DNA of 64,000 nucleotides. Origin: Oscillospiraceae bacterium. Its GTDB lineage: Bacteria; Bacillota; Clostridia; Oscillospirales; JAKOTC01. Position numbers and translations under genes: made by a program. Location: the NCBI GenBank assembly GCA_035353335.1, contig DAOPZJ010000004.1, forward strand, positions 15,555 to 79,554, written 5' to 3'. Under the pieces are notes generated by a model, which did not search any database, was not told the origin of the DNA, and saw nothing but the letters and a program-made list of their open reading frames with translations. This document shows positions 1-44,240 of this stretch, one piece after another (position 1 is the first letter of the stretch; each line of letters begins with the position of its first letter).

Positions 1-178
1 TCCCGAATCGACGGGGATCAGACCTAAAATCGTCTTCAGAAGCGTCGATTTGCCGCCGCCGTTCGGGCCGATGATACCCAGGAATTCGCCGTCGGCGACT
101 TCGAGGCAGACGTCCGAAAGCGCGGGCGTCCGGTTATAATACACCGTCAGATTTTCAATATGGATTGCGGACTGCATA
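1..178 (-). CDS. Metal (Zn/Mn-type) ABC transporter ATP-binding protein, N-terminal 59 codons only; gene runs off the left edge
   Basis: Not in the ORF track because no stop lies in the window. Reverse complement from ATG at 178 reads [59 protein letters not shown], with Walker [10 protein letters not shown]. It lies 42 nt downstream of the binding-protein gene on the same strand. Confidence 0.85.
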
Positions 179-220
179 ATGATGACCTTTCTTTGGTAGT
201 TAGGTTTGAAAAATCTATTT

Positions 221-1123
221 TCAAATTTGCATAACCTCCGCCATCAGATTTGCCATTTTCTTCAGGTTGTTGATATAATCAGCGTTAAGCGGTTCAAGCT
301 GAATGGTCTTTCCGCCGATTTCTTCGGCGAATGCGGCGGATTGGCTGCTGTCGATCTCACTCTGATAAAAGATCGCTTTGATGTTTTCGGCTTTTGCAAA
401 GTCGATGACCTCCTGCAGGTGTTGTGCGGTGGCTTCTTTGCCCTCTTCCTCGAGTGCAACCATCGTCAGCCCGTAATCATCGGCAAGATAGCCGAAAGCG
501 GGGTGAAAGACCACGAATTTCTTCATAGTCAAATTTGTAAAAGTCGTCTTAAGTTGGGTGTCCAAATCATCGAGCTGCGCAAGATATGCGGTTGCATTTT
601 GTTCGTAAACCGACGCATTTTCGGGGTCGAGTGCCGACATCTCACGTGCGATGGCCGATACCATAACCTTGACGCGTTTCGGTGAAAGCCAGATGTGCGG
701 ATCGCGCTCACCGGCTTCAAAAGTCCGGTCGGGATAGACCGCCGCGGTCTCATCGGACAGCGCGACCACTTTGACCGTGTTTTTAATATTTGAGAGGATA
801 TATGCCGATTCAATCGGAACGCCGATTGAAAAATAAATCGAGGCCTGTTCCAACCGCTGCATGGTATCGGGTTTCGGCTCGTAATTCTCGGGACTGCTTC
901 CCGGCGGCACCAACGTTACGACGTCGGCGAGATCGCCGCAGACGGCTTGTACAAAAGTCGCTTCGGGCACGATCGTGACGGCGACAATGGGCTTACCGGG
1001 TTGTGCGGATTCCGAAGAAGATGTCTTCGGCGCTTTTGCGCAGGCCGCAGTTAACAGTAATAAAACTATGAGAATGGCGATGATCAATCGGGAGACACCG
1101 TGAGTTGATTTCCGCTTCGGCAT
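221..1123 (-). CDS. Metal ABC transporter substrate-binding lipoprotein (ZnuA/TroA family)
   Basis: ORF 221..1153. The likely start is the internal ATG at 1123, preceded by GGAGG. It has a signal peptide with a lipobox-like LLTAAC. The family-typical layout is visible ([12 protein letters not shown]..., [30 protein letters not shown]). Confidence 0.85.
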
Positions 1124-1363
1124 AGAACCTCCATAGATGCAAATCATTTGCATTTATTATAATTGACACAATCCGTTAAGTCAATACATATTCGGGAGAT
1201 TTCTTTATTGAAGATTCATTATATCCGATTGAAAATTCCAAAAATCTTGAGATTTTAATATCAGTTTTACATGTCGTATGATATTCTTTTAACAGAAGGG
1301 AACGGATTGGTTTCCTTCTCAAAGTGAAATTTAACTTATATTCATATCAAGAGGAGTAGTTCT

Positions 1364-2719
1364 ATGAATCCCAAAGAATTATTATTTTCGGTTTTGAGAC
1401 ACGAGACGGTAAACCAGGTGCCGTGGGTGCCGTTTGCCGGAGTGCATGCCGGGAAACTCGTCGGTTATGACGCACAAGAAGTGCTTACCGATGGCGATAA
1501 GCTCTTCAAAGCGCTCTCCGAAGCCAACCGCCTATATAAACCCAACGGCCAGCCCGTTGTCTTCGATTTGCAGATCGAAGCCGAGATTTTGGGCTGCGAA
1601 CTGGTCTGGACCAAAGACGGCCCGCCGTCGGTCAAGACCCATCCGCTCGCCGAGACCAAACAGATCCCCTGCCGCTGCACTTTGCCCGACGAGACCGACG
1701 GGCGCATTCCGATGGTGCTTGACGTGATGCGGCGCATGAAAAAAGAATTCGGTGATACTACGGCACTCTACGGCCTGATCTGCGGCCCGTTTACATTGGC
1801 CTCCCATCTGCGCGGCAGCGAAATCTTTATGGATATGTTCGACGACGAGGAATATGTGAAACAGCTGCTTGTTTATTGCAACGACGCCGCAAAGCGTATG
1901 ACCGACATGTATATCGCGGCGGGTATGGACGTGATCGCCGTCGTCGACCCGATGGTCTCGCAGGTCTCTTCGGCGCATTTTGAAGAATTTTTGAGCGCCC
2001 CGTTTTCCGAATTGTTTGCCTACATCCGCGCCAAGAACGTCTTTTCTTCGCTCTTTGTGTGCGGCGACGCCACCAAAAATATCGATGTCATGTGCAAGAC
2101 CAACCCCGACTCGATCTCGATTGACGAAAATGTCAACATTGTGACCGCTAAACATATCGCCGACCACTATAATATCACAATCGGCGGAAATATCCCGCTG
2201 ACGACCGTGATGCTGCACGGCACTCAGCAGGACAACATGAAGTGCGTCATCGACATCATCGACAGCGTCGAAAGCAAGAAGAACCTGATTATCGCCCCGG
2301 GCTGCGACATGCCTTATAATGTCCCCGCGGAAAACGCCATCGGCGTGACGCAGGCGGTTTTGCAAACCGAAGAAACACGTAAAATGATTGCGAATTATGT
2401 CGCGGTCAAAGATAAAATCGAGGTCACTCTGCCGGATTACGCCAACCTTAAAAAACCGCTTCTTGAAGTGTTTACACTCGATTCGGCAACCTGCGCGGCC
2501 TGCGGCTACATGAAGGAAGCCGCGCAAAAAGCCAAAGAACACTTCGGCGATAAGATCGATATGGTTGAATATAAATATACGATCAAGGAAAATATCGCGC
2601 GCTGCATCAAATTGGGTGTCAAGAACCTGCCGTCGATCTACATCAACGGACAGCTCAAGTTCTCGTCGATCATCCCGAGCCGTGAGGAACTCTTTGGTGC
2701 AATTGAATCGGTGATGTGA
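1364..2719 (+). CDS. Uroporphyrinogen-decarboxylase (URO-D/MtaA-like) family protein fused to a C-terminal thioredoxin-fold domain with CAAC motif
   Basis: 451 aa. The N-terminal ~350 aa resemble the URO-D/methylcobamide methyltransferase family (PWVPFAGVHAG, DPMVSQVS, IIAPGCDMPYN). The last ~85 aa (LEVFTLDSATCAACGYM...NLPSIYINGQLKF) resemble small MTH895-type thioredoxin-like proteins. Confidence 0.7.
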   Translation: MNPKELLFSVLRHETVNQVPWVPFAGVHAGKLVGYDAQEVLTDGDKLFKALSEANRLYKPNGQPVVFDLQIEAEILGCELVWTKDGPPSVKTHPLAETKQIPCRCTLPDETDGRIPMVLDVMRRMKKEFGDTTALYGLICGPFTLASHLRGSEIFMDMFDDEEYVKQLLVYCNDAAKRMTDMYIAAGMDVIAVVDPMVSQVSSAHFEEFLSAPFSELFAYIRAKNVFSSLFVCGDATKNIDVMCKTNPDSISIDENVNIVTAKHIADHYNITIGGNIPLTTVMLHGTQQDNMKCVIDIIDSVESKKNLIIAPGCDMPYNVPAENAIGVTQAVLQTEETRKMIANYVAVKDKIEVTLPDYANLKKPLLEVFTLDSATCAACGYMKEAAQKAKEHFGDKIDMVEYKYTIKENIARCIKLGVKNLPSIYINGQLKFSSIIPSREELFGAIESVM

Positions 2720-2751
2720 TATAATACAGTCAAAAAGGGGGTGCGCGAGAT

Positions 2752-3669
2752 ATGACCGGACTCTATCTGATCACCGGCTTTCTCGGCGCGGGCAAGACTG
2801 TATTTTTAAAGGGCTTTATCCGGCGCAGTCCCAATATCCGTTTGAAAATCATTGTCAATGAGTTCGGAAAAGAGGGCATTGACGGCGCGTTGATCAGTGA
2901 GACAGGCGCAAAAGTAGAGGAGATCAGCAACGGCTCGATCTTTTGCACCTGCCGCATCGACCAATTCGAAAACGCGCTTATCAAAGCAACTGCCGATAAA
3001 CCGGAATTGATTTTGGTCGAGGCCTCGGGCCTTTCCGACCCGACTTCGATGCAGGTGATTTTGAAGCAGGAGCGTTTTTCGGAAATTGACTATCTCGGGT
3101 GCATCTGCCTCGTCGATCCCAAGACCATTCAAAAAGTGCTCGCGGGCGTGCGCGTCGGCATCAAGCAGCTCGAAGCCGCCGATCTGGTTTTGGTCAACAA
3201 AGCCGATACGGTCTCCGAGCAAGTTCTTTGCGAAACCGAAGCGTTGCTTCGGGATTTACGTCCCGATGTGCGGATTCACCGGACAACCTTCGGGCGGATT
3301 GAGCCGGAATGGTTACAAAATATCCGTAATGGCAAAGAGACCGGCGGTATAACTTATCATCTGAAAGACGTGGGCTTACAAAAGCTGACGATTACAATCA
3401 AGGACTCAATGAGTTACTCGCAGTTCGGTTACTTTCTTGCGGGGTTCGCATCATTCACTTTCAGAGTCAAGGGTATTGTTCTGCTCGAAGGTAAGCTCTC
3501 GTTAGTAGACTGTGTGGGCGAAAAGATATCAATCACCCCGTATTCGGGAGAAGCCGCACATCCCAATAAAATCGTTGCGCTGGCCGGGGCGGGTATGCCG
3601 ATGGAGAAAAAGGTTCAGGAAGCGGCTAAAAATCATTCGGAACACATCGAAGAAATCGAATGGGATTAA
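2752..3669 (+). CDS. CobW/COG0523-family G3E P-loop GTPase (putative metallochaperone), atypical metal motif
   Basis: GFLGAGKT Walker A, IVNEFG, LVEASGLSDP and VLVNKAD motifs are present. The canonical GCxCC motif is replaced by NGSIFCTC. Confidence 0.8.
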   Translation: MTGLYLITGFLGAGKTVFLKGFIRRSPNIRLKIIVNEFGKEGIDGALISETGAKVEEISNGSIFCTCRIDQFENALIKATADKPELILVEASGLSDPTSMQVILKQERFSEIDYLGCICLVDPKTIQKVLAGVRVGIKQLEAADLVLVNKADTVSEQVLCETEALLRDLRPDVRIHRTTFGRIEPEWLQNIRNGKETGGITYHLKDVGLQKLTITIKDSMSYSQFGYFLAGFASFTFRVKGIVLLEGKLSLVDCVGEKISITPYSGEAAHPNKIVALAGAGMPMEKKVQEAAKNHSEHIEEIEWD

Positions 3670-3681
3670 CAGCAATATCGT

Positions 3682-3714
3682 AAACGGCGGCAGGATTCCT
3701 GCCGCCGTTTTTGT
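3682..3714 (+). terminator. Rho-independent terminator after the COG0523 gene
   Basis: Perfect 12-bp stem AACGGCGGCAGG / CCTGCCGCCGTT with loop ATTC, followed by TTTTG. Confidence 0.75.
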
Positions 3715-3742
3715 CGACAAGTAAAAACGGGTATGGTATAAT
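3714..3742 (+). promoter_or_regulatory. Sigma-70-type promoter candidate for the 3827 gene
   Basis: TCGACA, 17-nt spacer, then TGgTATAAT (extended -10). Confidence 0.45.
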
Positions 3743-3826
3743 GAGGACATTCGAGAAAGATGGTCTAAAGTGTGGTTTAAAAATTAAATCCGGTTTTAAA
3801 GTCTTTGTGAGAAAGGTTAAAGAATC

Positions 3827-4789
3827 ATGAAAAATTATATGGATAATTTGAAAACCGGAAACCAGAAGCCCGGTAAAGAGATCAATAAAAAAGGAATGTT
3901 GGACATCGGCATGGTGGAAACCACCCCGGTCGTTTGGAAAGATCGGCTGTATCGTTTTGAATGGGTTCGTAACAACGAATGGGGCGGCGGTTATTGGAAT
4001 AATCAAACCAATCACGGCTATTTCCGTTTTACCGATATGGAGACGGAGGAGGTCACGCCTGCCTTCGGCGTGGATTATGCGTTCGGCAGCGCCTATATAA
4101 AACAGGCATCGGAAGGAGATACCGCTTATGTCTACGGTGTTCAGGGAAAAGGCGGCGGAAACCGTCTCGATGTTTTTCGGTCGCAGGATTTAATAAGCTG
4201 GGAGTCCAAAAAGGTTTTTGAATTTCCCGAAAGTTGGTCTTTATTTAACACCTCCGTCTGCAAAGGCAAAGACGGCTATGTGATGGCGCTCGAAATCGGC
4301 AGCCCGAAAGAAATTTGCGGGGCACCTTTTACCGTTGTATTTGCAGAATCCAAAAATTTAATCGACTGGACCATGATGCCGGTGGAAGATCATATCTATA
4401 CCAAAGAGCGTTATTCGGCCTGCCCGGTGATCCGGTTTGTCGAAGGTTGGTATTATATCATCTATCTGGAGAGCATCCCCGGTTACCGATGGGTGCCCTA
4501 TATCGTCCGCACGGAGGACTTCGTGAATTTCGAAATGGGAATTAAAAATCCGGTGATGGTTTTTAATGCTCAGGACAAAGTGGTTCAGCGCCCGGAGAAG
4601 TTTTCCGCCGACCAGTTAGAGTACATCAAAAACGCGGTGGACAGCAACAACAGCGATATCGACTTATGCGAATACCGCGGAAAGACCGTTATCCTGTACA
4701 GCTGGGGCAATCAGTTGGGCAAGGAGTTTTTGGCCGAAGCCGAATATGACGGGCCGATGGATGACTTTTTAAAATCGTTCTTTAATTGA
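3827..4789 (+). CDS. Hypothetical protein, possibly a five-bladed beta-propeller glycosidase-like fold
   Basis: 320 aa. The motifs SQDLISWES and GWYYIIYLE resemble blade signatures of GH32/43/130-type propellers. No catalytic motif was recognised with certainty. Confidence 0.4.
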   Translation: MKNYMDNLKTGNQKPGKEINKKGMLDIGMVETTPVVWKDRLYRFEWVRNNEWGGGYWNNQTNHGYFRFTDMETEEVTPAFGVDYAFGSAYIKQASEGDTAYVYGVQGKGGGNRLDVFRSQDLISWESKKVFEFPESWSLFNTSVCKGKDGYVMALEIGSPKEICGAPFTVVFAESKNLIDWTMMPVEDHIYTKERYSACPVIRFVEGWYYIIYLESIPGYRWVPYIVRTEDFVNFEMGIKNPVMVFNAQDKVVQRPEKFSADQLEYIKNAVDSNNSDIDLCEYRGKTVILYSWGNQLGKEFLAEAEYDGPMDDFLKSFFN

Positions 4790-4835
4790 AGATTGCCTTA
4801 TTTGTTTTTGATTTAGGCGGGAAAGGGCGGATTGG

Positions 4836-5693
4836 ATGCTGAATTTGGACGTAAAAGTGCTTTGGCTTTCCAAGTGCGCCTATCTGCCCGCAAACGGCGT
4901 CGACATCCACAGCCACCCGTTTTTTCACTACCTCTATATCGCAGACGGCGCGGCGGAGATGACCATCGGCGAAAAGGTCTACTTAGCTGCGGAGGACGAA
5001 TTTTACTTAATTTCACCCAGCGTCAGACACCGGTTTACCGCCGATACGGAAAAAGGCCTCAAGACCATCGAGATCAAGTTCACGGCGAGCGAGATGTTAA
5101 GCGCTCACCTGGCCGAACTCGGGGAACAGATGCGATTTTTCGACGGAAAAATCCGGCGTCTTGCCGAAAATCTGATCGGCGAGGGCATGTCGAAAGCCGC
5201 TTACCGAAACGACATTGTCAACCTGCGTTTTACCGAAATTTTAATGCATCTGCTGCGTGCATCGGACGAAAAAGAGGATGACGTGCAGGGCGTCGATGAT
5301 CCGATTCCGGAATATGCACGTGAGACGGGCGGACCGAACGGCACCGATTTAATAAAAGCGCTGACTTTTATGGAAAAAAATTTGGATCAGCCGGTCGATT
5401 TGGACACGCTGGCCAAAGTCAGCGGAATGAGCCGGTTTCAGTTTAATCGGTCTTTTAAAAGTGCCTACGGAATCACTCCGATTCGGTATCTCGGCGATTT
5501 GAGATTCGCAAAAGCCAAGGAGCTGATGCGCTATTCGGACAAAAACGTGACCCAGATCGCCTACAGCGTCGGGTTCAACGATGTGCATTATTTCAGCCGT
5601 TTTTTCAAACAGCGTGAGAATGTCGCGCCGAACGAGTATCTGAAAAAGGCGCGGGGTTCGCTTTATATTTATCTGGATGAAAAGGACAAATAA
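4836..5693 (+). CDS. AraC family transcriptional regulator (cupin sensor domain plus C-terminal HTH)
   Basis: The C-terminal part (LDTLAKVSGMSRFQFNRSFKSAYGITPIRYL...IAYSVGFNDVHYFSRFFKQ) is a classic AraC-type double HTH. Confidence 0.85.
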   Translation: MLNLDVKVLWLSKCAYLPANGVDIHSHPFFHYLYIADGAAEMTIGEKVYLAAEDEFYLISPSVRHRFTADTEKGLKTIEIKFTASEMLSAHLAELGEQMRFFDGKIRRLAENLIGEGMSKAAYRNDIVNLRFTEILMHLLRASDEKEDDVQGVDDPIPEYARETGGPNGTDLIKALTFMEKNLDQPVDLDTLAKVSGMSRFQFNRSFKSAYGITPIRYLGDLRFAKAKELMRYSDKNVTQIAYSVGFNDVHYFSRFFKQRENVAPNEYLKKARGSLYIYLDEKDK

Positions 5694-8844: not shown

Positions 8845-10134
8845 ATGATTCAGATTAAGCGCGCCGACTGCAATTTCGAACGGGAGCCGTTGGTTGCGCC
8901 GTTCGGATTCAAGGGCGGTTATGTCAACGAAATTTGGCAGGCGGCGGCACGGCTCGAAAGCGAATCGGGGCAGAGCGGTGTCGGGCTTGCGATTCAGAGC
9001 ATCCTGTGGTCGGACGCGGCGGTGTTTGCCGCCAATCTGCCGACCGCGGGCAACGCGCTGATGTACCTGATGACCGCGTTTGCGTTGCAAAAAGCCAAAA
9101 AGATCTCGTTCGAGACCCCGACGGATCTGCTCGAAAAGCTCTATCCGCTGACACTCGAATACGGCAAAAAAGTCACGGGCAACCCGAATCTTCGCCCGAC
9201 TTTTGCGCTGAATGCGCTGGTCGCGGTGGACAACGCCGCGTGGCTTCTGTATGCCCGCGAAAAGGGGATTACGAATTTCGACGACCTGGTCCCGGACGAC
9301 GTCAAACCCGCGCTCACGACAAGGCACGAAAAGCTCTCCGCAATCCCGCTGATCACCTACGGCATCTCGATGTCCGATGTGGTTAAGACGCTCGACGAGG
9401 GGTGCTTCTTCCTCAAGGTCAAGATCGGCTCCGACCCCGAGAAGAACGGAGACCTCAACAAGATGGTCGAGTGGGATAAAAAGCGGCTTTCGGACATTCA
9501 CGAGGCGGCCAAAAACCGCACGACGCCCTACACCGCTGACGGTAAAATCCCGTATTACCTTGACGCCAACGGGCGGTATGATAACAAAGACCGCTTGCTC
9601 CGGCTGCTCGACCACGCCGATAAAATCGGCGCTCTGGAGCGGATTATGCTGCTTGAAGAGCCGTTCCCCGAGGACTATTTGGCCGATGTGAGTGATATTC
9701 CGGTGCGGCTTGCGGCGGACGAGAGCGCACATTCCGATGTGGATGCAAAAGAGCGCATTGATCTCGGGTACAAGGCCATCGCTTTGAAACCGATCGCCAA
9801 GACCCTGAGCATGAGTTTTAAGATTTTAAAGATCACCTATGAGCGCAAGATTCCGTGTTTCTGCGCCGATTTGACTGTCAGCCCCGTGATGATCGATTGG
9901 AACAAAAATATCGCGTCGCGTTTGGTTCCGCTGCCCGGTATGAACATCGGCGTGCTCGAGACCAACGGACATCAAAATTACACCCGCTGGGAGACGTTGA
10001 AGTCCTTCCATCCGTGCGCAGGCGCACCGTGGACGGAGGTCAAAGGCGGCACGTTCACACTCAATAAGGACTTTTACGACCGCAGCGGCGGCATTTTCCT
10101 GAGAAGCGAGCACTACGAGAATTTAGTGAAATAA
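8845..10134 (+). CDS. Enolase-superfamily enzyme (mandelate racemase/muconate-lactonizing-enzyme-like)
   Basis: FLKVKIG (KxK), YLDANGRY, LLEEPF and LAADES resemble the metal-ligand and acid/base motifs of the MR/MLE subgroup. The substrate cannot be assigned. Confidence 0.65.
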   Translation: MIQIKRADCNFEREPLVAPFGFKGGYVNEIWQAAARLESESGQSGVGLAIQSILWSDAAVFAANLPTAGNALMYLMTAFALQKAKKISFETPTDLLEKLYPLTLEYGKKVTGNPNLRPTFALNALVAVDNAAWLLYAREKGITNFDDLVPDDVKPALTTRHEKLSAIPLITYGISMSDVVKTLDEGCFFLKVKIGSDPEKNGDLNKMVEWDKKRLSDIHEAAKNRTTPYTADGKIPYYLDANGRYDNKDRLLRLLDHADKIGALERIMLLEEPFPEDYLADVSDIPVRLAADESAHSDVDAKERIDLGYKAIALKPIAKTLSMSFKILKITYERKIPCFCADLTVSPVMIDWNKNIASRLVPLPGMNIGVLETNGHQNYTRWETLKSFHPCAGAPWTEVKGGTFTLNKDFYDRSGGIFLRSEHYENLVK

Positions 10135-11209: not shown

Positions 11210-11989
11210 TTACGGCTGCATGGCGCCGAACAGGACCAGCCAGGCCAAAACGGACTTTGCTGCCAAGCTGAGAACGATGTAGATGCGCTCGCCGTGCAGA
11301 TAATCCACCCACTTGCCGACGCGTTTATACTGTAAAATCATATTGATCGGGAAGGTGTTGAACGCCACGAAATAAGTGCCGACAATCGCCCAGACAAACC
11401 ACGGAACCATGTCGTAATTGCCGGTTCCGGTCATGTACAGAATGATCACAACCCACGGCGCGATACCGGCGATCGAGCCCCAGACAAACGGACCCCAGTT
11501 GACCTTTTTCTTCTCCGCACCGGCGTTCAGCTGCTCCATCACGAGGCCGAACAGATTCATGGTAGCGTTGACAACGAAAATCAGAATCAAAGTGGCGATG
11601 TCGTAGATGCCGAACAGGGTGCTGATGAGCACGATCATAATCGACGAGCTCAGGGCGTATTCGAACCAGCGGAATTTGTTGATGCCTTTTTGCAGATCGC
11701 TGACATAAGTCTTGCCATTCAGGACGATGAGGGCGTGGGCGGCCGCCGAGATCAGCAAAAACACGGCGACCAGAATACCGAAGGGCAATTTGAAAAGCTC
11801 CCTGCTCGCCGATTCGAGCGACTGCGTGGCGGGGTTATAGGTGAGGTAATTCTGTGTAATTACCGGTTGAAACTCGGCGATTTTTTGAATCACATTCGTG
11901 GCGAGAAACAGCATAGCGATACCCTGAACCAGATGAAACGCACCCATAATCAGGTTGAAGCGTTTGAGTTTTGTAAACGTGTTTTCCAT
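11210..11989 (-). CDS. Heliorhodopsin (type-1-like 7-TM retinal protein with inverted topology)
   Basis: 259 aa. FRWFEYALSSSIMIVLI and GERIYIVLSLAAKSVLAW closely match what I recall of heliorhodopsin 48C12 (FRWVEYSLSSSVMIVLI; GERAYIVLSLVAKSALAW). The Schiff-base Lys (K245), counterion Glu (E110) and His19/His85 are all present. An AAAGGAGG RBS precedes the ATG. Confidence 0.85.
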   Translation of the reverse strand: MENTFTKLKRFNLIMGAFHLVQGIAMLFLATNVIQKIAEFQPVITQNYLTYNPATQSLESASRELFKLPFGILVAVFLLISAAAHALIVLNGKTYVSDLQKGINKFRWFEYALSSSIMIVLISTLFGIYDIATLILIFVVNATMNLFGLVMEQLNAGAEKKKVNWGPFVWGSIAGIAPWVVIILYMTGTGNYDMVPWFVWAIVGTYFVAFNTFPINMILQYKRVGKWVDYLHGERIYIVLSLAAKSVLAWLVLFGAMQP

Positions 11990-40387: not shown

Positions 40388-41401
40388 ATGCAAGTATTAA
40401 AAGCTATTTGGGACTTTATACAAACCCAAATTCTCGGTATGAAGTGGTTAAATGACCTCATCGGGAGCGGGCTTTCCGCCCTTGGATTGGATCTTGAAAA
40501 CCGGTGGGTCAACAGCGCACAGTTTTTCCTTTATGATGTAATTAAAATCACGGTGCTGCTGTGCCTGTTGATTTTTGTGATCAGCTACATCCAGAGCTAT
40601 TTTCCGCCGGAGCGCAGTAAAAAGATTCTCGGACGCTTTCACGGCATCGGTGCAAATACCGTTGCAGCGCTGCTCGGTACGGTTACGCCGTTTTGTTCGT
40701 GTTCGTCCATTCCACTGTTCATCGGCTTTACCTCCGCGGGCCTGCCGGTCGGCGTGACGTTTTCGTTTCTGATTTCCTCGCCGATGGTCGACTTAGGTTC
40801 CTTGGTGCTGTTGATGAGCATTTTCGGGGTTAAGGTTGCAATAATCTATGTTTTGTTCGGACTGATTGTCGCGGTTGCAGGCGGTACGCTGATTGAAAAA
40901 CTGCATATGGAGAGATATGTGGAGAGCTTTATTCTGACCGCCGGAAGCGTGGACATCGAATCGCCCGATCTGACTAAAAGAGACCGGCTGGTTTACGCCA
41001 AAGAACAGATGTTCGCGACTTTTAAAAAGGTGATCCTGTACATTTTAATCGGCGTTGCGGTCGGTGCTGTCATTCACAATTGGATTCCCGAGCAATGGAT
41101 CAGCGCCGCACTCGGCAGCAACAACCCCTTCGGCGTGATCATTGCGACATTGATCGGCGTCCCGATGTACGCGGATATTTTTGGCACGATTCCGATTGCC
41201 GAAGCCCTGTTTGCAAAAGGTGCGCAATTAGGTGTGATCCTGTCTTTTATGATGGCCGTTACAACGCTGTCGCTTCCGTCGATGATCATGCTTCGTAAAG
41301 CGGTGAAACCCAAACTGCTGGCACTGTTTATCGCAATTTGTACCGTCGGCATCATCCTGGTCGGATATCTGTTCAACGCACTTCAGACACTGATTATATA
41401 A
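40388..41401 (+). CDS. arsP: COG0701-type permease (ArsP-like organoarsenical efflux permease)
   Basis: 337 aa, polytopic. The TPFCSCSSIPLF motif is characteristic of this permease family. Confidence 0.7.
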   Translation: MQVLKAIWDFIQTQILGMKWLNDLIGSGLSALGLDLENRWVNSAQFFLYDVIKITVLLCLLIFVISYIQSYFPPERSKKILGRFHGIGANTVAALLGTVTPFCSCSSIPLFIGFTSAGLPVGVTFSFLISSPMVDLGSLVLLMSIFGVKVAIIYVLFGLIVAVAGGTLIEKLHMERYVESFILTAGSVDIESPDLTKRDRLVYAKEQMFATFKKVILYILIGVAVGAVIHNWIPEQWISAALGSNNPFGVIIATLIGVPMYADIFGTIPIAEALFAKGAQLGVILSFMMAVTTLSLPSMIMLRKAVKPKLLALFIAICTVGIILVGYLFNALQTLII

Positions 41402-41423
41402 AAACTTATCGGAGGAAAAGAAA

Positions 41424-41714
41424 ATGGCTAAAAAGTGGTATCCTGTTGTCAATTATCTGATTTGCGAGGACTGCGGCACCTGTGTTGCAAAGTGCCCGCA
41501 CGGCGTGTATGACGTCAAAAAGGCGCCGTCGCCGGTTGTGATAAGCCCCGATGAATGCGTCGATCACTGCCACGGCTGCGGCAACCGCTGTCCCGTCGGT
41601 GCGATTACTTATGTCGGCGACGACACCGGCTGGACGCCGCCGAACAAAAAAGCGGCGGCTGAAAGTTCATGCGGCTGCGACGGCGGCAACAGCAGAGGCG
41701 GCTGTGATTGCTGA
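41424..41714 (+). CDS. Small 4Fe-4S dicluster ferredoxin-like protein with Cys-rich tail
   Basis: CEDCGTCVAKCP and CVDHCHGCGNRCP motifs. Tail SSCGCDGGNSRGGCDC. Confidence 0.7.
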   Translation: MAKKWYPVVNYLICEDCGTCVAKCPHGVYDVKKAPSPVVISPDECVDHCHGCGNRCPVGAITYVGDDTGWTPPNKKAAAESSCGCDGGNSRGGCDC

Positions 41715-41740
41715 CAATAAATTAAAACGAAAAGGAGCGA

Positions 41741-42085
41741 GTGATTATGTCAATCTTTAATAAGAAAAAGGAAGAATCCTGCTGCTGTGGAAACTGCGAC
41801 GCAAAAAGTATGGAACAAGCAGAGAAGGCAAAAACCGAAGGCGCGAGTGTAAAAGTGCTTGGAAGCGGCTGCGCCAAATGCAATCAGCTCGAAGCGTCGG
41901 TCAAAGAGGCCTTGTTGTTGCTCGGAATGGATGCGGCGATCGACCATGTGACCGATTTCGCCCAGATTGCCGCATACGGCGTCATGAGCACGCCCGCACT
42001 GGTCGTGGACGGCAAGGTCGTTTCTTACGGCAAGGTGTTGAAGACCGAAGAAGTCATCAAAATTTTACAGAAAGTCAGGGGCTAA
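41741..42085 (+). CDS. Thioredoxin-fold protein (MTH895/redox-active disulfide protein 2-like) with N-terminal CCCGNC extension
   Basis: VKVLGSGCAKCNQLE...STPALVVDGKVVSYGKV. The upstream 35 aa contain CCCGNCD. Confidence 0.75.
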   Translation: MIMSIFNKKKEESCCCGNCDAKSMEQAEKAKTEGASVKVLGSGCAKCNQLEASVKEALLLLGMDAAIDHVTDFAQIAAYGVMSTPALVVDGKVVSYGKVLKTEEVIKILQKVRG

Positions 42086-42087
42086 AA

Positions 42088-42291
42088 ATGAAAGCTGTCA
42101 TTGATAAGAGGAAGTGCTCTTCCGACCTGAGGATGTGCAAGCCGATGAAAGAATGTCCCACCGGTGCGATTTCGTGGATTGAAGACGACGACGAGCCGCT
42201 CGGTTCCCGCATGGAGATCGATGAGGGTAAATGCACCGGCTGCGGGCTCTGTGTCGAGTTGTGCTGCGGAAACTGCATCGAAGTAAAGTAA
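42088..42291 (+). CDS. Small 4Fe-4S-binding-domain protein
   Basis: The ATG at 42088 lies within track ORF 41878..42291. MKAVIDKRKCSS...CPTGAI...CTGCGLCVELCCGNC. Confidence 0.6.
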   Translation: MKAVIDKRKCSSDLRMCKPMKECPTGAISWIEDDDEPLGSRMEIDEGKCTGCGLCVELCCGNCIEVK

Positions 42292-42335
42292 AACAAATAT
42301 AACACGTTATAACTGCGAACCTTAAGGAGTTATTT

Positions 42336-43124
42336 ATGAGTGGCAAAGAGGAAACCAGAGAGCAAATCCGAAAAAAGTATTCGAAAATTGCGTTGAAGGG
42401 CGGCGAAGATTGCGGCTGCAGTTCGGGATGCTGCGGTGCGAAACCCCGCCTTGACGTTAAGGAAATCACCAAAAATCTCGGATACTCCGATGATGACCTT
42501 TCAAATATGCCCAATCAGGTAAATATGGGCCTCGGCTGCGGGAATCCTCTTGCGATCGCCTCACTCAAAGAGGGCGAGACGGTTCTCGATTTGGGCAGCG
42601 GGGGCGGTTTCGACTGCTTTTTGGCCAGGAGAAAAGTCGGTGAATCCGGGCATGTCATCGGCATCGATATGACGCCCGAAATGATCAAGCTGTCGCGTGA
42701 AAACGCCCGAAAAAGCAAAGTCGCGAATGTGGAGTTTCGCCTTGGCGAAATTGAGCATATGCCGGTTGCGGACGGCGTCGTGGATGTGATTATCTCAAAC
42801 TGCGTGATCAATTTATCGGTTGAAAAAGAAAAGGTGTTCAAAGAGGCCTACCGGGTTTTGAAAACCGGAGGGAGAATCTGCGTTTCCGACGTCGTTGCGA
42901 CTGCCGAACTGCCCGAGGAATTGAAAAAGAACATCGCCATGCTGACGGGCTGCATTGCGGGAGCGGAATATGTTGAAAACCTCAGAGCGATGTTAACAAA
43001 CGCCGGTTTTAAAAACATTCGAATGACCCCGAAAGACAACAGCAGAGAAATCCTGTCCTCTTGGGCGCCCGGAAAAGGCGTCGAAAATTACGTGGCTTCC
43101 TATATCATCGAGGCGGAAAAATAA
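42336..43124 (+). CDS. arsM: Arsenite S-adenosylmethionine methyltransferase
   Basis: N-terminal CGCSSGCCG, SAM motif VLDLGSGGGFDCF, and ISNCVINL. Confidence 0.85.
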   Translation: MSGKEETREQIRKKYSKIALKGGEDCGCSSGCCGAKPRLDVKEITKNLGYSDDDLSNMPNQVNMGLGCGNPLAIASLKEGETVLDLGSGGGFDCFLARRKVGESGHVIGIDMTPEMIKLSRENARKSKVANVEFRLGEIEHMPVADGVVDVIISNCVINLSVEKEKVFKEAYRVLKTGGRICVSDVVATAELPEELKKNIAMLTGCIAGAEYVENLRAMLTNAGFKNIRMTPKDNSREILSSWAPGKGVENYVASYIIEAEK

Positions 43125-43136
43125 TAATTTTCGAAA

Positions 43137-44240
43137 TTGTTCGGTATTCAAACACGAATCGGAGATGGTGTTGTGGATAAAATAAAAAAACAGGGCATCG
43201 GATTTTTTGAAAAATATCTGACGGTTTGGGTGCTGTTATGTATGGCGGCGGGTATCTTGATCGGCAAATTTTTGCCCGGAATCCCCGGTTTTCTCGAAAA
43301 AATTCAATATGCGGGGCAAAATATCCCGATTGCCGTCCTCATTTGGATTATGATCTACCCGATGATGATGAAGATTGATTTTCAGTCCATAAAAAATGTG
43401 AGAAAGAACCCGCTCGGATTGGTGATTTCATCCGGAAACAGCTGGCTGGTAAAACCGTTTCTGATGTTCGGTCTGTCGTCTCTCTTTTTCTATGTCATCT
43501 TCAAAGCGTTTATCCCGCATGATTTGGCGCAAAGCTATGTGACAGGCGCCGTATTGCTGGGCGTTGCCCCGTGTACAGCAATGGTTTTTGTGTGGAGCAA
43601 CCTCACAAAGGGCGATCCCGCGCACACGCTGGTGCAGGTTTCCGTCAACGATCTGTTGATCATTGTTTTGTTTGTCCCGCTGACAACTCTACTGCTCGGA
43701 ATCAATCAAAGTCAAATCCCTTGGGATACACTGATTTTTTCCATCGTTCTCTTTGTCGTAATTCCTTTGTCGGCAGGCGCTGTAACGAGGAGTTTAATGA
43801 TCAGGAAAAAAGGTTTGGAATATTTCAACGAAAAGTTTGTTCCGAAATTCGACGGGATTACCACTTCCGGTTTGTTGCTGACGCTCGTTATCATTTTTAC
43901 ATTTCAAGGCGATGTGATTCTGGAAAATCCGTTTTATGTGCTCTTGATCGCCGTTCCGCTGATTCTTCAAAATATCATCTCCGCGACGATTGCCTATCAG
44001 TTGTGCAGGTGGGCGAAACTGCCTCATAACATTTCCGCGCCCGCCTCTCTGATCGCCGCTTCCGATTTCTTTGAATTGTCGGTGGCTGTCGCGATTTCGC
44101 TGTTCGGGCCGGATTCCCCGGTGGTGCTTGTCTGCACGGTCGGCGTACTGACAGAAGTTCCGGTGATGCTGCTGCTTGTGAAATTTATCAACAAAACAAA
44201 GCATTGGTTTCCCGAGACCGGCAAGGAAACAGCAAAATGA
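43137..44240 (+). CDS. acr3: ACR3-family arsenite efflux transporter
   Basis: FFEKYLTVWV, IAVLIWIMIYPMMMKIDF and GVAPCTAMV motifs. An alternative GTG start at 43173 has a GGAG RBS. Confidence 0.9.
   Translation: MFGIQTRIGDGVVDKIKKQGIGFFEKYLTVWVLLCMAAGILIGKFLPGIPGFLEKIQYAGQNIPIAVLIWIMIYPMMMKIDFQSIKNVRKNPLGLVISSGNSWLVKPFLMFGLSSLFFYVIFKAFIPHDLAQSYVTGAVLLGVAPCTAMVFVWSNLTKGDPAHTLVQVSVNDLLIIVLFVPLTTLLLGINQSQIPWDTLIFSIVLFVVIPLSAGAVTRSLMIRKKGLEYFNEKFVPKFDGITTSGLLLTLVIIFTFQGDVILENPFYVLLIAVPLILQNIISATIAYQLCRWAKLPHNISAPASLIAASDFFELSVAVAISLFGPDSPVVLVCTVGVLTEVPVMLLLVKFINKTKHWFPETGKETAK

Follow-up and report, generated by a model that had tools for sequence, protein, structure and literature searches.

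A conserved MtaA-like methyltransferase-thioredoxin fusion and its GTPase partner: probable core of a corrinoid-dependent methyl-transfer system

The fusion protein and its partner GTPase

We analysed a 64,000-nucleotide stretch of contig DAOPZJ010000004.1 from an Oscillospiraceae bacterium (hereafter the window) and focused on two adjacent genes on its forward strand. The first (1364-2719) encodes a 451-residue protein in which a URO-D/MtaA-like methyltransferase barrel is fused to a C-terminal thioredoxin-fold domain, as judged from the open reading frame (ORF), Pfam, NCBIfam, an AlphaFold2 model and Foldseek comparisons. The second (2752-3669) encodes a 305-residue G3E GTPase of the COG0523 type with a variant switch-I motif, identified by Pfam cobW and a match to YjiA. 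The genes are separated by 32 nucleotides (2720-2751) in which we read the ribosome-binding site AAAGGGGG, and the GTPase gene is followed by an intrinsic-terminator-like hairpin and T-run (3683-3713; scan match at 3685-3704, then the T tail). Based on the short spacer with its ribosome-binding site and the hairpin behind the GTPase gene, we conclude that the two genes form a two-gene operon. All of these features, and those within the two genes described below, are on the forward strand.

The barrel of the fusion was most similar to that of MtaA. Residues 3-332 (1370-2359) form the (beta/alpha)8 barrel and matched the Pfam family URO-D (PF01208; E = 3e-49), and in a phmmer search of solved structures residues 7-327 aligned with MtaA (4AY7; E = 1e-18). 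The AlphaFold2 model of the fusion had a predicted local distance difference test score (pLDDT) of 89 and a predicted template modelling (TM) score of 0.88. The top Foldseek match to this model was MtaA (4AY7/4AY8), with a TM score over the target of 0.87-0.90, compared to about 0.77 for true decarboxylases; among the solved structures, no chain spanned both the barrel and the thioredoxin domain. The NCBIfam models for MtaA/CmuA (TIGR01463), MtbA and MtaA scored 153, 133 and 131 bits on the fusion (cutoffs of 235, 600 and 400 bits, respectively), and the hemE equivalog model (TIGR01464) scored 54.8 bits against a cutoff of 302.95.

The name given to the fusion genes in databases is misleading. 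All of the protein clusters at least 70% identical to the fusion (at least 120 clusters of 445-475 residues, plus one variant of 559 residues) are named just 'uroporphyrinogen decarboxylase family protein'. Taken with the Pfam match, this name would make the fusion a HemE uroporphyrinogen decarboxylase of tetrapyrrole biosynthesis. However, the hemE score was far under its cutoff while the MtaA/MtbA-type models gave 131-153 bits, the structural match to MtaA was clearly better than that to any decarboxylase, and the neighbouring genes in relatives (see below) encode components of corrinoid methyltransferases rather than haem enzymes. We consider a HemE identity effectively refuted and hardly credible.

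The fusion has both cysteine ligands of the MtaA zinc site and a phenylalanine in place of the histidine. In the alignment to 4AY7, F231-V-C233-G (2054-2065) lies at the position of the His-x-Cys zinc ligands, in agreement with an earlier annotation made from the sequence of the window (hereafter the original prediction), which had read the HxC motif of MtaA as FVCG here. P-G-C314-D-M (2297-2311) aligned with 'apgcg' of MtaA, at the position of the second cysteine ligand, and D254-E255-N256 (2123-2131) aligned with 'sveek' of 4AY7, opposite the Glu-Glu of MtaA. Eleven residues at these three sites (F231, C233, G234, D254, E255, N256, P312, G313, C314, D315 and M316) were invariant in 80/80 aligned fusions.

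The replacement of His by Phe predates the fusion and reaches beyond it. Representatives of the wider family at 50% identity included a Phe-Cys-Cys (F-C-C) clade with fused members (CAAC, CAPC or CPAC in the thioredoxin domain) and a few unfused ones, whereas more distant relatives were His-Cys-Cys; the acidic motif, as D-E-N/Q, was kept throughout the F-C-C clade. The unfused members were represented by three short sequence contexts only, and a metagenome scan gave nearly all fused proteins. The idea that the thioredoxin fusion itself caused the change from His to Phe, with the CxxC serving as a substitute ligand, is weakened by these unfused members. Because the usual His is Phe in the whole clade, we propose that a carboxylate in the D254/E255/N256 region may be the third metal ligand.

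The C-terminal domain (residues 366-450; 2459-2713) is a thioredoxin fold of the MJ0307/MTH895 type. By phmmer, residues 367-449 aligned with residues 5-82 of the 85 residues of MTH895 (1NHO; E = 6e-10), and the module also matched MJ0307 (1FO5; E = 4e-4) and the NCBIfam model TIGR00411 (E = 5e-12). The Pfam Thioredoxin_3 model gave 24.0 bits on residues 374-443, marginally under its cutoff of 24.8. In the AlphaFold2 model, the topology was beta-alpha-beta-alpha-beta-beta-alpha (strands 366-371, 399-404, 424-427 and 430-434; helices 378-397, 408-417 and 440-450), with pLDDT values by 10-residue block that were mostly 84-96 and 76 in one block. The ORF, the Pfam and structure matches and the model thus agree with the original prediction of a 451-residue protein with a URO-D/MtaA-like barrel and a CAAC-bearing thioredoxin-fold C-terminus. 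Since the segment does take up this fold in the model, one of the grounds on which the original prediction could have been refuted falls away. Like MJ0307 and MTH895, the module has about 85 residues, the same topology, a CxxC that opens helix 1 and a conserved cis-Pro position; unlike these minimal thioredoxins it is not free-standing, it has an invariant Ala-Ala where 1NHO has Pro-Tyr, and it falls just under the Pfam cutoff.

The thioredoxin domain probably carries a redox-active dithiol, as judged from its invariant CAAC and conserved cis-Pro. All four residues of C377-A-A-C380 (2492-2503), at the N-terminus of helix 1, were present in 80/80 genome loci, and the cis-Pro position (L422-P423) was invariant in the 80 aligned fusions. 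Most metagenome loci also had CAAC and a few had CPAC or CSAC; distant fused clades had CAPC. The original prediction had likened the module to the free-standing thioredoxin-like protein encoded at 41741 in an ars locus of the window. The two have the Pfam family Thioredoxin_3 in common, but there was no pairwise BLASTP similarity between them, and we dropped any closer kinship.

The partner GTPase is of the cobW type and lacks the canonical metal-binding motif of COG0523 proteins. Residues 5-175 matched Pfam cobW (E = 5e-34), and the protein aligned with YjiA (1NIJ; E = 1e-15). The nucleotide-binding motifs are intact: a P-loop GFLGAGKT (2776-2799), EASG at residue 90 and NKAD at residue 149. 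In 120 database homologs, the P-loop was present in 116 and NKxD in 119. As the original prediction had stated, G-S-I-F-C-T-C (2932-2952) replaces the canonical G-C-x-C-C, and it lines up with GCICC of YjiA. Among the GTPase orthologs at fusion loci, the Ser of this switch-I motif was found in 56/58, the Phe in 57/58 and both Cys in 58/58. The form GS[IV]FCxC was scored in 58/58 of these orthologs and in 120/120 database homologs, and GCxCC in none. CobW_C was not detected in the GTPase of the window at E <= 0.01; precomputed annotations place this domain (PF07683) on many orthologs that are 45-52% identical.

Weak NCBIfam matches to selenoprotein relatives had raised the possibility of selenocysteine at the CxxC or CxC motifs. 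No in-frame stop codon aligned with any key cysteine of the fusion or GTPase motifs, and we therefore conclude that selenocysteine is not involved.

Conservation of the pair and its gene neighbourhood

The fusion belongs to a large, extremely conserved and uncharacterised family that is present in cultured gut species and environmental anaerobes. A scan of species-representative genomes gave 80 loci, and an independent metagenome scan, used as a replicate, returned 80, of which 76-77 were fused, for 156 fused loci in the two sets. Hosts in the genome scan included Oscillospiraceae, Christensenellales, Cellulosilyticaceae, Tissierellia, Halanaerobiales, Haloplasma, Spirochaetes and others, among them the cultured species Ruthenibacterium lactatiformans, Lawsonibacter faecis, Bengtsoniella intestinalis, Butyricicoccus pullicaecorum and Tissierella creatinini. 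Across orders, the fusions were 60-87% identical. The original prediction did not recognise the fusion as a described architecture, and our literature searches likewise found no description of a URO-D-thioredoxin fusion, of the F-C-C site or of the GS[IV]FCxC subfamily; the architecture is, however, common rather than rare. The 559-residue relative (P0039; 73% identical) has a Biotin_lipoyl domain (PF00364) besides URO-D and could be a further fusion or a gene-call artefact.

The fusion and GTPase genes are co-conserved, as their pairing in the original prediction implied. Where enough flanking sequence was available, the GTPase gene lay directly 3' of the fusion gene in 60/72 genome loci and 37/54 metagenome loci. 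The GTPase was found in 63/69 well-flanked loci overall (at least 4 kb on both sides). It was kept in 24 of the 26 loci that lacked a corrinoid protein or the reductive activator RACo, and the reverse arrangement, a corrinoid protein or RACo without the GTPase, was seen in 4/69. Lawsonibacter faecis has two copies of the fusion (L044 and L050) and no GTPase within 10 kb of either. In a Eubacteriaceae locus (L079), GTPase genes flank the fusion on either side, and at L175 an unfused F-C-C member is followed by a cobW-type GTPase (1370-1597) whose start overlaps the stop codon of the preceding gene.

In relatives, the pair normally lies inside a corrinoid methyltransferase cassette. We identified neighbours by de novo clustering followed by Pfam and NCBIfam scans, and counted them in well-flanked loci (50 genome and 23 metagenome loci, 73 in total). 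The recurrent neighbours were a 211-residue corrinoid protein (B12-binding_2 plus B12-binding domains, with best matches to MtgC/MtbC-type models; 30/50 genome and 15/23 metagenome loci), a RACo-type reductive activator (23/50 and 9/23), a PocR-AraC regulator (23/50 and 4/23), DUF1638, DUF2284 and DUF5714 proteins and a BioB-like radical SAM protein. Some loci add MttB-family methyltransferases (2/50 and 6/23) and BCCT transporters, NitT/TauT-type ABC transporters, or a second URO-D paralog. The usual order was PocR-AraC (on the opposite strand), corrinoid protein, fusion, GTPase, in some cases the radical SAM and DUF2284 genes, and RACo. No pterin-binding methyltransferase was among the recurrent neighbour clusters, from a survey that included no search aimed at such genes.

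Recognised methyltransferases accompany the fusion in several arrangements. In L069, L072, L075 and about 10 metagenome loci, genes of the MttB family adjoin those for the corrinoid protein and the fusion, in the order MttB, corrinoid protein, fusion. A fused clade that is 39% identical has the order TRAP transporter, corrinoid protein, MttB, URO-D-thioredoxin, and a clade that is 41% identical has URO-D, corrinoid protein, URO-D-thioredoxin, RACo. The second URO-D paralogs, found in about 10/80 loci, were 18-24% identical and had variable ligands. In L033, L037, L058 and L078 (Pseudoflavonifractor, Butyricicoccus and relatives), the neighbours of the pair are a DUF5714 gene and a NitT/TauT-type ABC transporter whose binding protein is NMT1-like, which hints at a transported substrate other than the betaine type of the MttB/BCCT loci.

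The original prediction had left the chemistry open and had noted that no corrinoid protein is nearby. This is true of the 64-kb window but misleading, since the relatives carry the pair inside a corrinoid methyltransferase cassette, and this context narrows the chemistry considerably.

A probable corrinoid-dependent methyl-transfer system

Based on these results, we lean toward the view that the fusion and the GTPase form the centre of a methyl-transfer system that depends on a corrinoid (vitamin B12), and that in this genome they are parted from their usual partners. That the genes belong to a corrinoid-dependent methyltransferase module is very likely. The domains, their conserved motifs, the joint conservation of the two genes, the cassette around them and the missing link to a zinc importer are observations; we infer the direction of methyl transfer, the acceptor, the identity of the metal and the parts played by the thioredoxin domain and the GTPase. 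By analogy with MtaA, a methyl-Co(III) corrinoid protein would donate a methyl group that the fusion would transfer to a soft nucleophile; a thiol, sulfide or selenide is the likeliest acceptor. Activation of this nucleophile would take place on a metal bound by Cys233, Cys314 and probably Glu255 or Asp254. The fusion would then be a shared 'second methyltransferase' (MT2) that serves substrate-specific first methyltransferases (MT1s) of the MttB or URO-D type, the genes for which would adjoin the fusion in some genomes and sit elsewhere in others.

The closest characterised enzymes are the Methanosarcina methylcobamide:coenzyme M methyltransferases MtaA, MtbA and MtsA (4AY7). The fusion resembles them in its barrel fold, with MtaA as its best match in sequence and structure, in both cysteine zinc ligands and the acidic pair, and in the partners of its relatives (a corrinoid protein, a reductive activator and sometimes an MttB-family MT1). 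It differs in having Phe for His and a C-terminal thioredoxin domain, in scoring under the NCBIfam cutoffs, and in its hosts, which are mostly non-methanogenic Clostridia and their relatives. Such bacteria are not expected to make coenzyme M, and the acceptor would then have to be another compound. To our knowledge, the known bacterial second methyltransferases transfer the methyl group to tetrahydrofolate.

The type 1 mlp clusters are also among the closest described systems. Each encodes two or more MtaA-like proteins, Mlp2 and Mlp3 at the least, in which the His-Cys-Cys site is invariant. A corrinoid protein and a RACE activator are also part of these clusters, for which a role in methyl-sulfur or methyl-selenium metabolism has been proposed (Kountz and Balskus 2023 preprint, PMC10418091). 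The same work proposes that MtaA-like proteins of non-methanogens that lack a tetrahydrofolate methyltransferase are S- or Se-methyltransferases, and raises explicitly, as a question, the role of MtaA-like enzymes in organisms without coenzyme M; its text has no mention of a thioredoxin fusion or a GTPase (PMC10418091). A thiol- or selenol-type substrate is proposed for these clusters and for the fusion cassettes; in the latter no recurrent tetrahydrofolate methyltransferase was seen, although no search was aimed at it. Unlike the mlp clusters, the fusion loci usually have a single URO-D gene, a Phe-Cys-Cys site, the fused thioredoxin domain and the GTPase partner.

We give the MT2 direction about an even chance. 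Where a recognised MT1 adjoins, the fusion is, by analogy, in the slot that MtbA holds in methanogens. In addition, a shared MT2 with variable partners is what would be expected from the conservation of the fusion across orders (60-87%) as compared to that of the accompanying URO-D paralogs (18-24%, with variable ligands). Alternatively, the fusion could be an MT1-type enzyme that demethylates a methyl thioether or selenide (methanethiol, dimethyl sulfide, methylselenol or a methionine-like compound) and loads the corrinoid protein, with the CxxC handling the freed thiol or selenol, or it could catalyse both half-reactions as does MtsA. The two kept cysteine ligands would suit a soft sulfur or selenium substrate, and the closest described systems, the type 1 mlp clusters and the sdm genes of M. 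voltae, are proposed to demethylate methyl-selenium or methyl-sulfur compounds (PMC10418091). However, the position of the fusion beside MttB and its high conservation next to variable partners look like a shared MT2 and not like a substrate-specific MT1, no selenocysteine was found at the key cysteines, and no selenium genes were among the recurrent neighbours. We consider an MT1-type role rather unlikely, though a serious competitor to the MT2 role.

We propose that GTP-dependent installation or repair of the metal site in the fusion would be the dedicated task of the partner GTPase. The case for a role at the methyltransferase metal site seems to us balanced. COG0523 'subfamily 13' co-localises with mtaA, mtaB, mtaC and ramM, and it is presumed to assemble the metallocentres of zinc-dependent methyltransferases (Haas et al. 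2009, PMC2770081). The link between COG0523 and corrinoid methyltransferases was thus already noted in 2009 and is a partial precedent. In both cases a cobW-type G3E GTPase is encoded beside mtaA-like, corrinoid-protein and activator genes; the fusion-linked GTPases differ in having GS[IV]FCxC (120/120), and they are set apart from the Methanosarcina members by description only. Since the COG0523 set of that study was picked by homology and the CXCC motif (PMC2770081), GS[IV]FCxC GTPases would have fallen outside it.

The GTPase could instead be a corrinoid-handling chaperone, like MeaB for methylmalonyl-CoA mutase, that gates B12 loading or repair with no metal insertion. The G3E class includes MeaB (PMC2770081), the GTPase is found in B12-dependent cassettes, and it has lost the CxCC metal-binding motif. 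However, it stays with the methyltransferase in the 24 of 26 loci that have no corrinoid protein or RACo, this window included, the converse being found in only 4/69. Moreover, its sequence is of the cobW/COG0523 type (YjiA at E = 1e-15; CobW_C in orthologs) rather than the MeaB type, and two invariant cysteines remain in switch I. We regard a MeaB-like role as quite improbable. Because the GTPase is kept in these 24 loci and also follows an unfused F-C-C member, its client is more likely the metal site of the methyltransferase than the corrinoid protein. The original prediction of a metal-insertion or redox-activated enzyme pair survives in part: a metal-insertion GTPase is still the most plausible reading and the pair is co-conserved, but the zinc-regulon framing attached to it does not extend past this lineage (see below).

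The part played by the thioredoxin domain is the weakest step. The CAAC dithiol may keep the cysteine ligands or a thiol acceptor reduced, or may deliver the acceptor; we put this forward tentatively. In its most specific form, our proposal is that the fusion is a methyl-corrinoid:thiol (or sulfide or selenide) methyltransferase that gives non-methanogenic, largely non-acetogenic Clostridia a tetrahydrofolate-independent methyl outlet, that the CAAC domain takes part in the catalytic cycle and presents, generates or relays the acceptor thiol, and that the Cys2-carboxylate site is set by a CxC-type G3E GTPase. We infer these roles jointly, and that all of them are correct at once is a speculative and unlikely proposition.

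Several observations weigh against the assignment of the pair to such a system. No NCBIfam model of the MtaA group reaches its curated cutoff on the fusion, and the histidine that defines the S-methylating URO-D enzymes is absent (Phe231). Because of this replacement and the score under the MtaA/CmuA cutoff, metal binding is not assured. The GTPase lacks CxCC, the basis of metal binding in COG0523 proteins, and a few loci, including both in Lawsonibacter faecis, have no GTPase nearby. Most cassettes contain no first methyltransferase, and the majority have one methyltransferase beside the corrinoid protein, which would also suit an MT1-type fusion. Behind an unfused F-C-C relative (P0129) lies a gene for a homocysteine S-methyltransferase (PF02574, E = 3e-64; L172, 2613-3458) that could itself be the MT2, in which case the fusion-type enzyme would be the MT1 there. 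Finally, a corrinoid protein, RACo, MttB and the other cassette genes were not found within the 64-kb window, so the methyltransferase assignment in this genome rests on orthology. The system would work as an MtaA/MtbA-type corrinoid methyltransferase aided by a GTPase of the COG0523 type, yet it falls short of features that define each of the known families: the His ligand, the NCBIfam cutoffs, the multi-Mlp content and CxCC.

Methyl transfer dependent on B12 in anaerobes sets the fate of methylated compounds from the diet and the environment, among them betaines, carnitine-type amines, methoxylated aromatics and methyl-sulfur and methyl-selenium compounds. If the most specific form of our proposal is correct, the fusion would be a bacterial counterpart of MtbA with an acceptor other than coenzyme M, acting on methyl groups removed from quaternary amines and further methylated substrates in hosts that include human-gut Oscillospiraceae, and the two proteins would be a new client-chaperone pair for COG0523. 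The Phe-for-His metal site, the invariant CAAC and the dedicated GTPase with its non-canonical motif offer experimental handles. Solving the system would name a methyl acceptor and possibly a source of volatile methyl-sulfur compounds, and would give the COG0523 GTPases, which are poorly understood, a defined client.

The zinc importer, the intergenic region and neighbouring genes

The zinc importer next to the pair appears to be a local accident that gives no clue to the function of the pair. As the original prediction had stated and the gene calls agree, the pair is divergent from a ZnuA/ZnuC-type importer: znuA is upstream on the opposite strand, followed by znuC, znuB and a FUR-family gene. 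This adjacency was found only in this genome (an Oscillospiraceae metagenome-assembled genome [MAG], GCA_035403805.1) and in a sister that is 87% identical (L087). ZnuA was near the fusion in 0/80 genome loci by tblastn and in 0/73 well-flanked loci of the two sets (0/50 genome and 0/23 metagenome). In a relative at 79% identity, and likewise in L001 and L008, the position of the znu genes is taken by a divergent operon of PocR-AraC, corrinoid protein, DUF1638 and RACo.

These comparisons bear on the possibility that Zur regulates the two genes as a pair for zinc homeostasis, in which a zinc chaperone and its client enzyme would be induced along with the divergent znuACB importer when zinc is limiting. 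The importer and FUR-family genes here and in the sister, a conserved palindrome in the shared intergenic region (described below) and the presence of many COG0523 proteins in Zur regulons (PMC2770081) would fit such a pair. However, ZnuA adjacency is missing from all 73 related loci, a corrinoid cassette is at the same position in the 79%-identical relative, the motif typical of zinc-linked COG0523 proteins, CxCC, is missing from the GTPase, the palindrome is beside the -10 box of znuA, far from the fusion gene, and the repeat once proposed as an operator is at chance level and not conserved. We reject a zinc regulon as a trait of the family, and with it, beyond this lineage, the zinc-regulon framing of the original prediction, and consider a Zur-regulated pair very unlikely.

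The inverted repeat proposed in the original prediction, ATTGAC-N10-GTCAAT at 1169-1190, does not have the spacing or position given. ATTGAC is at 1162-1167 and GTCAAT at 1180-1185, with a spacer of 12 nucleotides. At this site the N10 form was not matched exactly; when two mismatches or fewer were allowed, it occurred twice in the window compared to 3.3 times expected. There are 12 short pairs of this kind in 300 AT-rich bases, the two arms among them, and the left arm is not kept in the 87%-identical sister species. Both arms are accounted for as the -35-like hexamers of two overlapping divergent promoter-like sites, and we dropped the repeat as an operator.

Of these two sites, the one that could drive the pair (1163-1192, forward strand; TTGACA, 18 nucleotides, CATATT) has the left arm as its -35 box; it was found by consensus scan only, with 10/12 matches, and is not conserved in the sister species. 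The other (1156-1184, reverse strand; TTGACT, 17 nucleotides, TATAAT) has the right arm as its -35 box, matched the consensus at 11/12 positions, and would serve znuA, which is outside the proposed system; its AGTCAATACAT segment is kept in L087. Five promoter-like sites were found in the region compared to 3.1 expected from shuffles, a number that is not above that of the shuffled sequences.

A repeat scan also found an exact 7-1-7 palindrome, TGCAAATcATTTGCA (1138-1152, no strand assigned), beside znuA and outside the proposed system. It is the sole exact copy in the window, is conserved in L087, and is just downstream of the -10-like box of znuA, about 210 nucleotides from the start codon of the fusion gene. 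It makes a better operator candidate than the ATTGAC/GTCAAT repeat and is probably a Fur-family (Zur) operator of the znuA-znuC-znuB-fur operon. The znuA ORF is listed from 1153 (reverse strand). An ATG at 1123 that follows GGAGG gives a protein beginning MPKRK with a lipoprotein-like signal and agrees with other assemblies, where the gene is called with 300 residues; translation probably begins at 1123.

We found little sign of a regulatory RNA in the leader of the fusion gene. The leader contains a hairpin with a 10-bp stem (1294-1319), and the sister L087 has one of different sequence at a comparable place (about 9912-9947); the folding z-scores of -1.6 and -2.7 are marginal. An Rfam search of positions 1-5000 of the window (E <= 1) gave no relevant riboswitch or other RNA in the leader, and the idea of a riboswitch or known RNA there was dropped.

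Directly 3' of the pair is a 320-residue ORF (3827-4789) with no Pfam match; its synteny, together with that of the AraC-type regulator that follows, is kept in the sister species. Further away, the ars-like locus (40388-44240) encodes a permease, a small 4Fe-4S-type protein (41424-41714) and the Thioredoxin_3 protein mentioned above (41741-42085; 92 bits), followed by what appear by eye only to be a SAM-methyltransferase-like gene (42336-43124) and an Acr3-like permease gene (43137-44240). About 8.5 kb downstream of the pair, on the same contig, is a heliorhodopsin gene (Pfam PF18761; about 11210-11989 of the window, reverse strand; L081, 19847-20626), in what is an anaerobic Oscillospiraceae MAG.

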